NCBI GenBank assembly: GCA_965205975.1 | Contig: OZ242195.1 | Location: 224,001-288,000 of the forward strand | DNA from: Candidatus Latescibacterota bacterium | GTDB lineage: Bacteria > Latescibacterota > UBA2968 | Reading direction: 5' to 3' | DNA length: 64,000 nt | In this document: one piece after another, positions 29,342 to 30,040 of the stretch | Position numbering within the stretch: the first letter of the stretch is position 1 | Layout: each line of letters opens with the position of its first letter | Made by a program: the position numbers and the translations under genes | Notes under the pieces: model-generated | Database searches by the model: none | What the model saw: only the letters and a program-made list of their open reading frames with translations | What the model was told of the DNA's origin: nothing

Positions 29342-29560
29342 ATGACTGAGCGCATTATATCAAGGCCAGCACAAGTTTCTGTTACCTGTGTTCAACTCCC
29401 CGGTCAAGAAATCGAACTGGCACGTGGTGAGATGGCGAATACATCAGGAGGATGCATTTTGCCAGGAGAAGATTTGTTTGAGCACGACCCACTTGAGCCT
29501 CTTGAAGATATTATTGATGATATCTGCGATACGGTGAGTGAATGGTGGGCTTCCTGGTAG
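29342..29560 (+). CDS. Putative RiPP/bacteriocin precursor 1 (double-glycine leader, 72 aa)
   Basis: AAGGAGG RBS; leader ends ELARGEMANTSGG; 35-aa acidic core CILPGEDLFEHDPLEPLEDIIDDICDTVSEWWASW; lies upstream of a C39 transporter. Confidence 0.75.
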   Translation: MTERIISRPAQVSVTCVQLPGQEIELARGEMANTSGGCILPGEDLFEHDPLEPLEDIIDDICDTVSEWWASW

Positions 29561-29662
29561 CAATCGCGCTACACTCCATAAGACGCTATTTCTGTTGCTC
29601 AGATGCTGGACGAAAACCATCTTTTTTGCTGGATCTTACAATTCATTTACCTGGAGGATATC

Positions 29663-30040
29663 ATGCATAATCGCGTAACTTCAGATTCAAATTCAGATGC
29701 TGTTTTTGCCTCTTGCACGATACTGCCTATCCATCAAACAACGCTCAATGTTGAAGAAATGGCGGGCATTGATGGCCTGGGAAGTGTGGCAGATGCTATT
29801 GATGCAGCGGTAGATTATATTTCTGATGTTGTTGATTCAGTAGGAGATTGTATTTCTGATTTTGTTGATTCGTTATATTTTTACCCCGAGGAGCCTGAGT
29901 ACCAATACAGGCCTGATCCATTTGCTCCTCCCCAACCTGATAGTACATTGAATATTATCACTCAGGAAATACATAAGTGTGACGGCCCGATTGTGTACAC
30001 ATCTTATGGGACTTGTTTGTGTCCGTCACAGGGGCCGTAG
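29663..30040 (+). CDS. Putative RiPP/bacteriocin precursor 2 (125 aa)
   Basis: GGAGG RBS; leader SCTILPIHQTTLNVEEMAGIDG aligns without gaps to precursor 1; acidic core with an internal 11-aa repeat and a Cys-rich tail. Confidence 0.68.
   Translation: MHNRVTSDSNSDAVFASCTILPIHQTTLNVEEMAGIDGLGSVADAIDAAVDYISDVVDSVGDCISDFVDSLYFYPEEPEYQYRPDPFAPPQPDSTLNIITQEIHKCDGPIVYTSYGTCLCPSQGP

Follow-up and report, generated by a model that had tools for sequence, protein, structure and literature searches.

The small genes P1 and P2 encode, judging from their sequences, two of eight paralogous double-glycine-type precursors in one Candidatus Latescibacterota genome, and their family is very probably PCAT-exported. 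We propose, with moderate confidence, that a core serine of these precursors is O-glycosylated by GT4/GT28-type enzymes under the guidance of the leader, that a C39 peptidase domain cuts the leader off, and that type I export would yield antibacterial glycopeptides. Because the serine motif vanishes in relatives without neighbouring glycosyltransferases, the family is predicted to be sugar-decorated, a reading that we consider somewhat probable; an antibacterial role, suggested by analogy, is held at a similar strength. The window, to which all positions refer unless a locus is named, is the whole 64,000-nucleotide stretch of DNA that was analysed (Table 1).

In the proposed pathway, a leader element, R-h-x-S/T, would recruit the adjacent GT4 enzyme together with its GT28-like partner. 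GT4 would O-glycosylate the serine of a D-x3-D-x-[VIA]-S-[ED] helix, and the GT28-like enzyme would perhaps extend the sugar. Once the peptide is glycosylated, the C39 domain would recognize L-12/M-7/-4/G-2 and cleave behind position -1; an ABC-HlyD-TolC channel, with TolC encoded elsewhere, would release acidic amphipathic glycopeptides that act on competing bacteria, with CAAX or zincin proteins giving immunity. What the sequences show are the genes, the motifs, their conservation and their joint loss with the enzymes; glycosylation, the order in which the enzymes act, export, target and cleavage, the last most of all at G-L, are inferred from them.

Table 1. Features of the precursor locus in the window
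Feature	Position	Strand	Description
DUF3267 putative zincin membrane peptidase	25550-26182	+	PF11667 E 5e-17
GT28/GT1-like glycosyltransferase	26433-27722	+	PF04101 E 2.9e-12
GT4 glycosyltransferase, candidate peptide O-glycosyltransferase	27885-29288	+	PF00534; GT-B fold, MshA-like
GT4 C-terminal domain, candidate precursor-binding	28980-29285	+	Two strands, poorly modelled stretch, three helices predicted
Precursor P1	29342-29560	+	72 aa; leader 29342-29452 ends G-G; core 35 aa
R-h-x-S/T upstream leader element	P1 29351-29362; P2 29672-29683	+	Tracks glycosyltransferases
Leader motif of the earlier note, C-22 to G-1	P1 29387-29452; P2 29714-29779	+	Ungapped alignment
Core motif D-x3-D-x-V-S-E of P1	29516-29542	+	Ser66 (29537-29539), predicted glycosylation site
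Degenerate copy of the GT4 3' end	29530-29600	+	End of P1 (other frame) and P1-P2 spacer; repeat D3
Precursor P2	29663-30040	+	125 aa; leader 29663-29779 ends G-L; core 86 aa
33-nt (11-residue) tandem repeat, P2 core	29792-29860	+	Two motif copies, Ser54 and Ser65; repeat D1
Long-type peptidase-containing ABC transporter	30180-33230	+	Two cNMP-binding domains, C39, membrane, ATPase
HlyD adaptor	33342-34724	+	TIGR01843 over cut-off
PpiC/SurA-like protein	34721-35494	+	PF00639; TIGR04500 81 bits, under cut-off 180

Extent and conservation of the leader family

The earlier note had reported that P1 and P2 share an ungapped leader motif, C-x2-LP-x5-L-x3-EMA-x3-G, and both stretches are indeed present and align without gaps, with 35 of 84 nucleotides identical. 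The pair alone is borderline: its ungapped 21-residue BLOSUM62 score of 29 was reached by 51 of 1000 shuffles. The exact motif occurs five times in the 127,487 six-frame ORFs of the genome, always within three paralogous clusters, and a family profile recovers the eight precursors at E <= 1.7e-10, the next match lying at E 0.08. Homologues conserve the motif, and the leader family occurs in 41 of 161 genomes of the phylum, confined to two families, and in none of 108 genomes from the other twelve Latescibacterota families. Library searches added 73 longer relatives, and the leader profile gave 91 matches among 50%-identity representatives (82 new identifiers; 76 short); six long matches, which proved to be repeat proteins, were removed before counting.

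The main set comprises 69 precursors from 33 of 34 glycosyltransferase-bearing (GT) loci in 22 genomes, always directly behind GT4; at the remaining locus, L033, GT4 has no adjacent precursor and the precursors lie elsewhere in the genome. Leaders are 37-45 aa long. The full motif is present in 31 of the 69 precursors from the 34 loci and hence is not family-wide, the conservation by position being C-22 54, L-19 69, P-18 59, L-12 65, E-8 46, M-7 48, A-6 52 and G-2 69, so that L-19 and G-2 are invariant. Similarly, the 76 short library matches have C in 70, L in 76, P in 56 and G-2 in 73. When 67 leaders were compared with the Pfam and NCBIfam precursor models, the best E-values were 0.07 and 0.017, respectively, with at most two members matching any one family; whole P1 and P2 had no Pfam or NCBIfam match, and no curated model of a precursor family, NHLP, Nif11 and class IIb among them, fitted the leader. 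Two loci, L098 and L143, hold orphan precursors with a GT4 3' remnant and no transporter nearby, an intact cluster being present elsewhere in those genomes.

Precursor genes, export machinery and neighbouring genes

The genes of the locus follow the order zincin, GT28-like, GT4, P1, P2, cNMP-cNMP-C39-ABC transporter, HlyD and PpiC-like protein. P1 has a ribosome site, AGGAGGT, at 29328-29334, a leader of 37 aa and a core with a net charge of -11; P2 has a leader of 39 aa, a core with a net charge of -13 and a variable, Cys-rich tail, and corresponds to entry P0046 (125 aa) of the protein collection. The start of P2 is almost certainly the ATG at 29663, because GGAGG stands at 29653-29657 and the orthologues begin there; the start at 29603 given previously is rejected on the same grounds, while the 3' end at 30040 was correct. 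The dN/dS values of the leaders, 0.53 for P1 (against 15 orthologues) and 0.25 for P2 (against nine), indicate purifying selection; those of the cores are 0.37 and 0.99.

The decayed copy of the GT4 3' end that makes up the end of P1 and the P1-P2 spacer is a trace of tandem duplication, and it is by such duplication, starting from the GT4 3' end, that precursor arrays expand. The Trp-rich C-terminus of P1 is itself GT4 sequence in another reading frame, and a decayed GT4 3' end with a ribosome site is also seen at 11435-11640 of L001 and 10600-10770 of L002. As judged from two chimeric members, P0101 and P0128, precursors also recombine within the leader: in both, the start of a P2-type leader is joined to the end of a P1-type leader and its core, which makes the leader longer. 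At 311-439 of L084, directly behind a GT4, a P1-type leader is followed by a core of just two residues; a leader-only helper and a truncation are the candidate readings. A promoter scan remained at chance level (14 matches, 14.8 expected). One RNA-library run covered 30 of 30 bins of the cluster as it stands in related strains, and likewise 30 of 30 bins of a 20-kb control stretch; as the control was covered equally and the run contained only 5% of the words, it is uninformative on transcription and habitat.

The transporter matches PF00027 (twice), PF03412, PF00664 and PF00005, reaches 525.9 bits with TIGR01193 (cut-off 523.85), and is found in 32 of the 34 GT loci and in all 14 loci of genus g6 described below. 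The PpiC/SurA-like protein carries W (35/36) and A (36/36) at the two positions where active parvulins have His, and it is likely to be a chaperone; it is kept in loci without glycosyltransferases, which ties it to export. Nine TolC-family genes (18 domain matches) lie elsewhere in the genome. In three divergent loci, M16 peptidase or TPR proteins stand between precursor and transporter (L045 10067-12861, L046 8837-9820, L051 9998-11296); an M16 peptidase also occurs in cyanobacterial group II clusters, as described in the main text of PMC3140520.

CAAX/Abi and zincin-type genes occur in bacteriocin immunity. One or the other was found in 20 of 34 GT loci and in 14 of 14 g6 loci, zincin genes by themselves in 12 of 34 and 12 of 14; the window's own locus has no CAAX gene, and its DUF3267 zincin is a candidate immunity protein or second processing enzyme. 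These recurrent genes, together with hypervariable cores, tandem duplication and chimeras, resemble toxin-immunity turnover, and to that extent they argue against a rather unlikely alternative in which the secreted (glyco)peptides are structural or host-facing, serving as matrix or surface proteins like EbfG1-4 of Synechococcus or as signals to an animal host. That alternative draws on the presence of the cassette in all 21 genomes of the genus, toxin loci being typically patchy, and on cores that are acidic, up to 115 aa long and in some cases low-complexity; strongly acidic cores are unusual for bacteriocins. The same exporter type, moreover, secretes GG-leader proteins needed for biofilm, and EbfG1-4 illustrate that C39-secreted GG-leader peptides need not be antibiotics (PMC4997328, in the sections available). 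Association with sponges is known for such Latescibacterota organisms, according to the part of PMC12993501 available.

Core motif and predicted acceptor serine

The cores, 28-115 aa in length and with a negative net charge in 64 of 69, are hypervariable but share D-x3-D-x-[VIA]-S-[ED] on an acidic amphipathic helix. The strict motif was found in 97 of 142 cores (shuffle mean 2.3, maximum 9), in 11 of 24 representatives below 40% identity (shuffle mean 0.4, maximum 4) and in 26 of 75 more distant library matches, some of which duplicate earlier rows (shuffle mean 0.7, maximum 4). Amphipathicity exceeds all 500 shuffles for the P1 and P2 cores and reaches p <= 0.05 in 10 of 24 representatives. 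The conserved core residue is Ser, and 14 of the 69 cores have no Cys. The motif is found in only two of five cores in each of two P2 subclades.

Some cores have other peculiarities. Those of L041, L042, L131, L137 and L148 end in Cys runs (up to seven) or C-x-C-x-C, and these loci contain no modifying enzyme for them. At 7233-7697 of L096, a core of genus g8 has a G/K/T low-complexity repeat expansion relative to its L048 orthologue.

Glycosyltransferases and possible sugar supply

The GT4 gene lies directly upstream of precursors in 33 of 34 loci, and an orthologue was found in each of the 20 genomes sampled from the genus. Its catalytic R/K and E-x7-E residues are intact (R195, K200, E263 and E271 invariant in 43 of 43), and its model adopts a GT-B fold with a pLDDT of 82. 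The GT28-like gene, with paralogues at 86%, occurs in 32 of 34 GT loci and in none of 14 g6 loci. In the two paralogous loci, the GT28-like domain is fused behind a second GT4 domain; the gene stands alone in the window (nadB-guaA locus), with an N-terminal GT4 domain fused to it elsewhere, including L035 and L039.

GT4 carries a C-terminal extension of about 100 residues, which has only 37 homologues in the protein collection and occurs in 25 of 161 genomes of the phylum; a metagenome scan with the domain gave two loci only. Weak GT4 matches in Bacteroidales, Acidobacteria and Verrucomicrobia were set aside as ordinary GT4 genes that stand in a different genomic setting (3 of 5 inspected). 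The extension matched nothing in Pfam or among PDB sequences. Its structural model is of low confidence (pLDDT 62, strands under 60) and had no Foldseek match at E <= 0.001, with a best Atlas score of 0.75; in VIA-align the best Z was 7.0 over 49 residues, covering three helices only. For an RRE (PqqD) fold, a candidate identity of the domain, hhalign gave under 1% against one local RRE and likewise against a 14-row local PqqD-type profile that contained two wrong-frame rows and gave only 19% for its positive control. A predicted GT4-P1 complex scored 0.52, against 0.00 for the best of three controls. That mark was also attained by 116 of the 157 solved pairs and by 2 of the 215 mismatched ones, although only 18 of the solved pairs, along with both mismatches, attained it at 0.60 or below. 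The runs agreed on at least 24% of contacts with a partner pLDDT of at least 37 and gave no interface; the model lends weak support to a GT4-P1 interaction.

A UDP-GlcNAc 2-epimerase gene stands behind the cluster in 8 of 34 GT loci but in none of the 14 g6 loci, several of whose stretches end too early to include it; at L001 it is joined by a UDP-sugar dehydrogenase and an epimerase. These UDP-sugar genes may possibly supply the donor. In the window, at 35382-36867, a 5' remnant of the 2-epimerase, with 76% over 34 aa, overlaps the PpiC gene at its 3' end. Next come a C5 DNA methylase and an HNH nuclease, both absent from the orthologous loci inspected; the sugar-supply gene seems to have been replaced at this locus.

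Upstream of the paralogous cluster at L001 (17355-19999; about 2,813,000-2,820,000 of G000) stands a separate module, made up of a fusion of a Ser/Thr kinase with a sigma54 activator, an ORF of 58 aa and a radical SAM/SPASM gene whose N-terminal region is RRE-like. A 301-aa ORF without a Pfam or NCBIfam match follows. The radical SAM enzyme was rejected as the cognate enzyme, since its gene occurs at only one of 34 loci and there has a short upstream ORF to itself.

Natural loss of the enzymes in genus g6

The leader family is present in 15 of 15 g6 genomes, where the GT4 domain is found in none of 15 and a GT28 orthologue in none of five tested. The g6 sample comprises 14 loci from 13 genomes with 45 precursors, and its loci keep the precursors, CAAX and zincin genes, transporter, HlyD and PpiC. 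In the HlyD tree, built from 33 chosen rows with near-duplicate genus rows left out and rooted at the midpoint, the g6 loci form a single clade (100/99) whose sister group is the main GT loci, and loci that carry glycosyltransferases and the motif branch outside. This nested position, together with GT4 3' remnants upstream of some g6 precursors (best E 3e-5), indicates that the enzymes were lost, and lost once; as the loss was a single event, the counts of co-loss that follow are not independent.

The relaxed core motif occurs in 55 of 69 GT-locus cores vs none of 45 g6 cores (14 GT-less loci). At the homologous position, Ser is found in 23 of 24 GT-locus cores vs 0 of 37 in g6, across three separate core clades (P1, P1b-FG and WY). 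Its replacements in g6 are V, F, A, K, R, M, N, E, G and D, two of the 37 being unplaced, and the flanking acidic and hydrophobic residues persist around it; [VIAT]S[ED] stands elsewhere in five of the 45 cores (shuffle mean 2.6). The R-h-x-S/T leader element follows the same course, with 68 of 69 precursors in GT loci vs 12 of 45 in g6. On this sequence comparison, it is the R-h-x-S/T element and the core motif, not C-x2-LP, that track the glycosyltransferases. The g6 cores are also shorter and less acidic (median net charge -2 vs -8), so the loss of the serine may have been part of a broader functional shift.

These patterns also bear on whether the peptides are modified at all. They could be unmodified class II bacteriocin- or microcin-like peptides, with the glycosyltransferases acting on a cell-surface glycan, a lipid or the transporter and the serine being merely part of the helix. 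That g6 runs the cassette without the enzymes in all 15 genomes fits this reading, as do the intact GT loci of genus g8 (L048 and L096), which have the enzymes and no core motif, the nearest solved folds of GT4, which act on small molecules and lipids, the amphipathic P1 and P2 cores, and the class IIb bacteriocin name that NCBI gives to one member, P0057. We nevertheless judge it unlikely, as the serine is replaced in three separate core clades while the leader element decayed in the same lineage, and as GT4 has a dedicated extra domain, occurs only with this family and abuts its precursors. At one locus, L140, Ser is retained and no GT4 was found in the genome (82% complete).

Double-glycine recognition and the G-L cut site

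The assignment of the leaders to the double-glycine type, made previously from spacing, agrees with their hydrophobic residues at -12, -7 and -4, with G-2, and with the Gln, Cys, His and Asp of the adjacent C39 domain. In the LahT structure, C39 reads leader positions -12/-7/-4 and G-2 (PMC6363468, as far as its available text describes). Among the 69 precursors, -12 is L in 65, -7 is M, I or L in 60 and -2 is always G; position -4 is I in P2 and T in P1. The C39 catalytic residues are intact by pattern in 31 of 32 transporters.

Position -1 is more variable: G 40, L 19, A 4, Q 4, T 1 and E 1 in the 69 precursors (G or A in 44, P1 included), and G 53, L 8, E 6, A 4 and Q 3 in the 76 library matches. 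The canonical cut-site rule is GG, GA or GS (PMC10885120, in the part available), and L, E, Q or K at -1 puts many members outside it. The G-L of P2, which the earlier note had singled out as non-canonical, was seen as described and is no one-off, since it characterizes a clade (19 of 21). This clade has the best hydrophobic pattern of the family (-12 and -7 in 21 of 21, -4 in 20 of 21), and in sequence terms G-L is conserved as a trait of this clade, whose recognition helix is intact. G-L also appears in the distant genus g6 (2 of 45), and G-E, G-Q and G-K occur in other clades.

How G-L precursors are processed is a matter of graded conjecture. Cleavage after G-L by a C39 domain with a relaxed S1 pocket is our tentative preference; export in an uncut form, or cutting by a second protease, is a serious competing possibility; and a cut shifted by one residue is improbable, with Gly at +1 found in only one of three G-L subclades. 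Among the papers listed on non-canonical C39 sites, none concerned G-L. A further, quite unlikely reading is that P2 and its clade are not cleaved substrates at all, being decoys, helpers or pseudogenes. The breach of the GG/GA/GS rule and the P2 core dN/dS of 0.99 would accord with it, but the leader dN/dS of 0.25, the near-complete hydrophobic pattern of the clade and the recurrence of G-L in g6 and of G-E, G-Q and G-K elsewhere weigh against it.

Role of the C-x2-LP element

The suggestion that C-x2-LP is a recognition site for a modification enzyme is not supported. In g6, without GT4 and GT28, leaders still have L-19 in 45 of 45, P-18 in 40 of 45 and C-22 in 29 of 45 (Pro in 13), and the persistence of L-P where both glycosyltransferases are lost makes the element independent of the tailoring enzymes; conversely, the Cys is missing from a whole precursor clade (0 of 14) in enzyme-bearing loci. 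A tailoring-enzyme site is therefore unlikely, and docking of an RRE-type modifying enzyme, for which the radical SAM enzyme at the paralogous locus would be one candidate, is very unlikely given these losses and the scarcity of that gene, even though L-19 is invariant (69/69, 76/76, 45/45) and lies beyond the span that C39 is known to recognize, the extra domain of GT4 is modelled in the order strand-strand-helix-helix-helix, and a SPASM enzyme lies upstream at L001. Since L-19 and P-18 survive the loss of the enzymes, their most likely partner is the exporter or the PpiC-like chaperone.

Comparison with known systems

A published description of this precursor family was not found in the literature available, although the cluster tables of supplements may list its loci; for Latescibacterota, the available part of PMC12993501 mentions only unspecified RiPP-like clusters. 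The closest architecture is that of the cyanobacterial group I/II bacteriocin clusters (Wang, Fewer and Sivonen 2011; PMC3140520, main text), which combine a long-type C39 transporter bearing cNMP (CAP_ED) domains at its N-terminus, HlyD and a SurA/rotamase protein with arrays of mostly acidic double-glycine precursors. The cNMP-C39-ABC, HlyD and rotamase set is present here as well. In contrast to those clusters, the present family belongs to another phylum, has leaders of 37-45 aa with no NHLP/Nif11 match, a conserved core Ser motif and two conserved glycosyltransferases ('glycosyl' being absent from the main text of that paper).

EbfG1-4/PteB of Synechococcus elongatus likewise involve several co-located small GG-leader proteins and a C39 transporter, the EbfG proteins being secreted and 9-10 kDa in size (PMC4997328, available sections); compared by description, and as far as seen, the glycosyltransferases and the core motif are peculiar to the present family. 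MirC (TIGR04500, rosaritide) offers a parallel for the PpiC/SurA-like protein, as it is a chaperone partner in a PCAT-containing cluster (PMC13097080, in the text available). The protein described here differs in its score of 81 bits (cut-off 180) and in having no MirC N-terminal domain, and its locus has no graspetide synthetase.

GT4 enzymes also occur in the RiPP clusters of GG-Bacteroidales (TIGR04157) and of cacaoidin (Cao24), where they are accessory to radical SAM or lanthipeptide chemistry (PMC8068269, as far as available); here the glycosyltransferases are the only conserved enzymes, and GT4 scores 28.9 bits against the TIGR04157 cut-off of 400, which places it outside the GG-Bacteroidales type. 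Similarly, the radical SAM enzyme whose conservation marks ranthipeptide/SPASM RiPPs is confined to one of 34 loci.

Glycocins (sublancin, glycocin F, thurandacin) resemble the family in their double-glycine precursors and PCAT export, and in having glycosylation, here predicted, as the sole conserved tailoring, on a linear precursor; O-linkage to Ser is known among them. They differ in using GT2 enzymes and in modifying Cys first, in place of the GT4 and GT28-like GT-B enzymes found here, and the present cores are acidic with no conserved Cys (glycocins as described in the available part of PMC11912497). As both a GT2 S-glycosyltransferase and a conserved acceptor Cys are absent, the family falls outside the glycocins.

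The same source describes glycocins, which use GT2 enzymes, as the sole RiPP class that glycosylation defines. The present family may, tentatively, constitute a second glycosylation-only class, unrelated to glycocins. In it, a GT4 enzyme bearing a new precursor-binding domain would read a bipartite code (R-h-x-S/T in the leader, D-x3-D-x-h-S-[ED] in the core) and O-glycosylate hundreds of peptides that otherwise have no relation to each other, and a C39 with a relaxed S1 pocket would cut these after G-L, G-E or G-Q and export them, all core to an uncultured marine genus. If true, site-specific O-glycosylation of peptides would gain a new route, and a portable tool, in a GT4/GT28 system whose short sequon sits in very diverse cores, and the natural enzyme-loss lineage pinpoints the residue to test. 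A C39 domain that accepts bulky -1 residues would widen the GG/GA/GS rule used by genome-mining tools, reliance on which may hide such precursors, and the peptides would be the first defined secreted product family of a widespread uncultured lineage.
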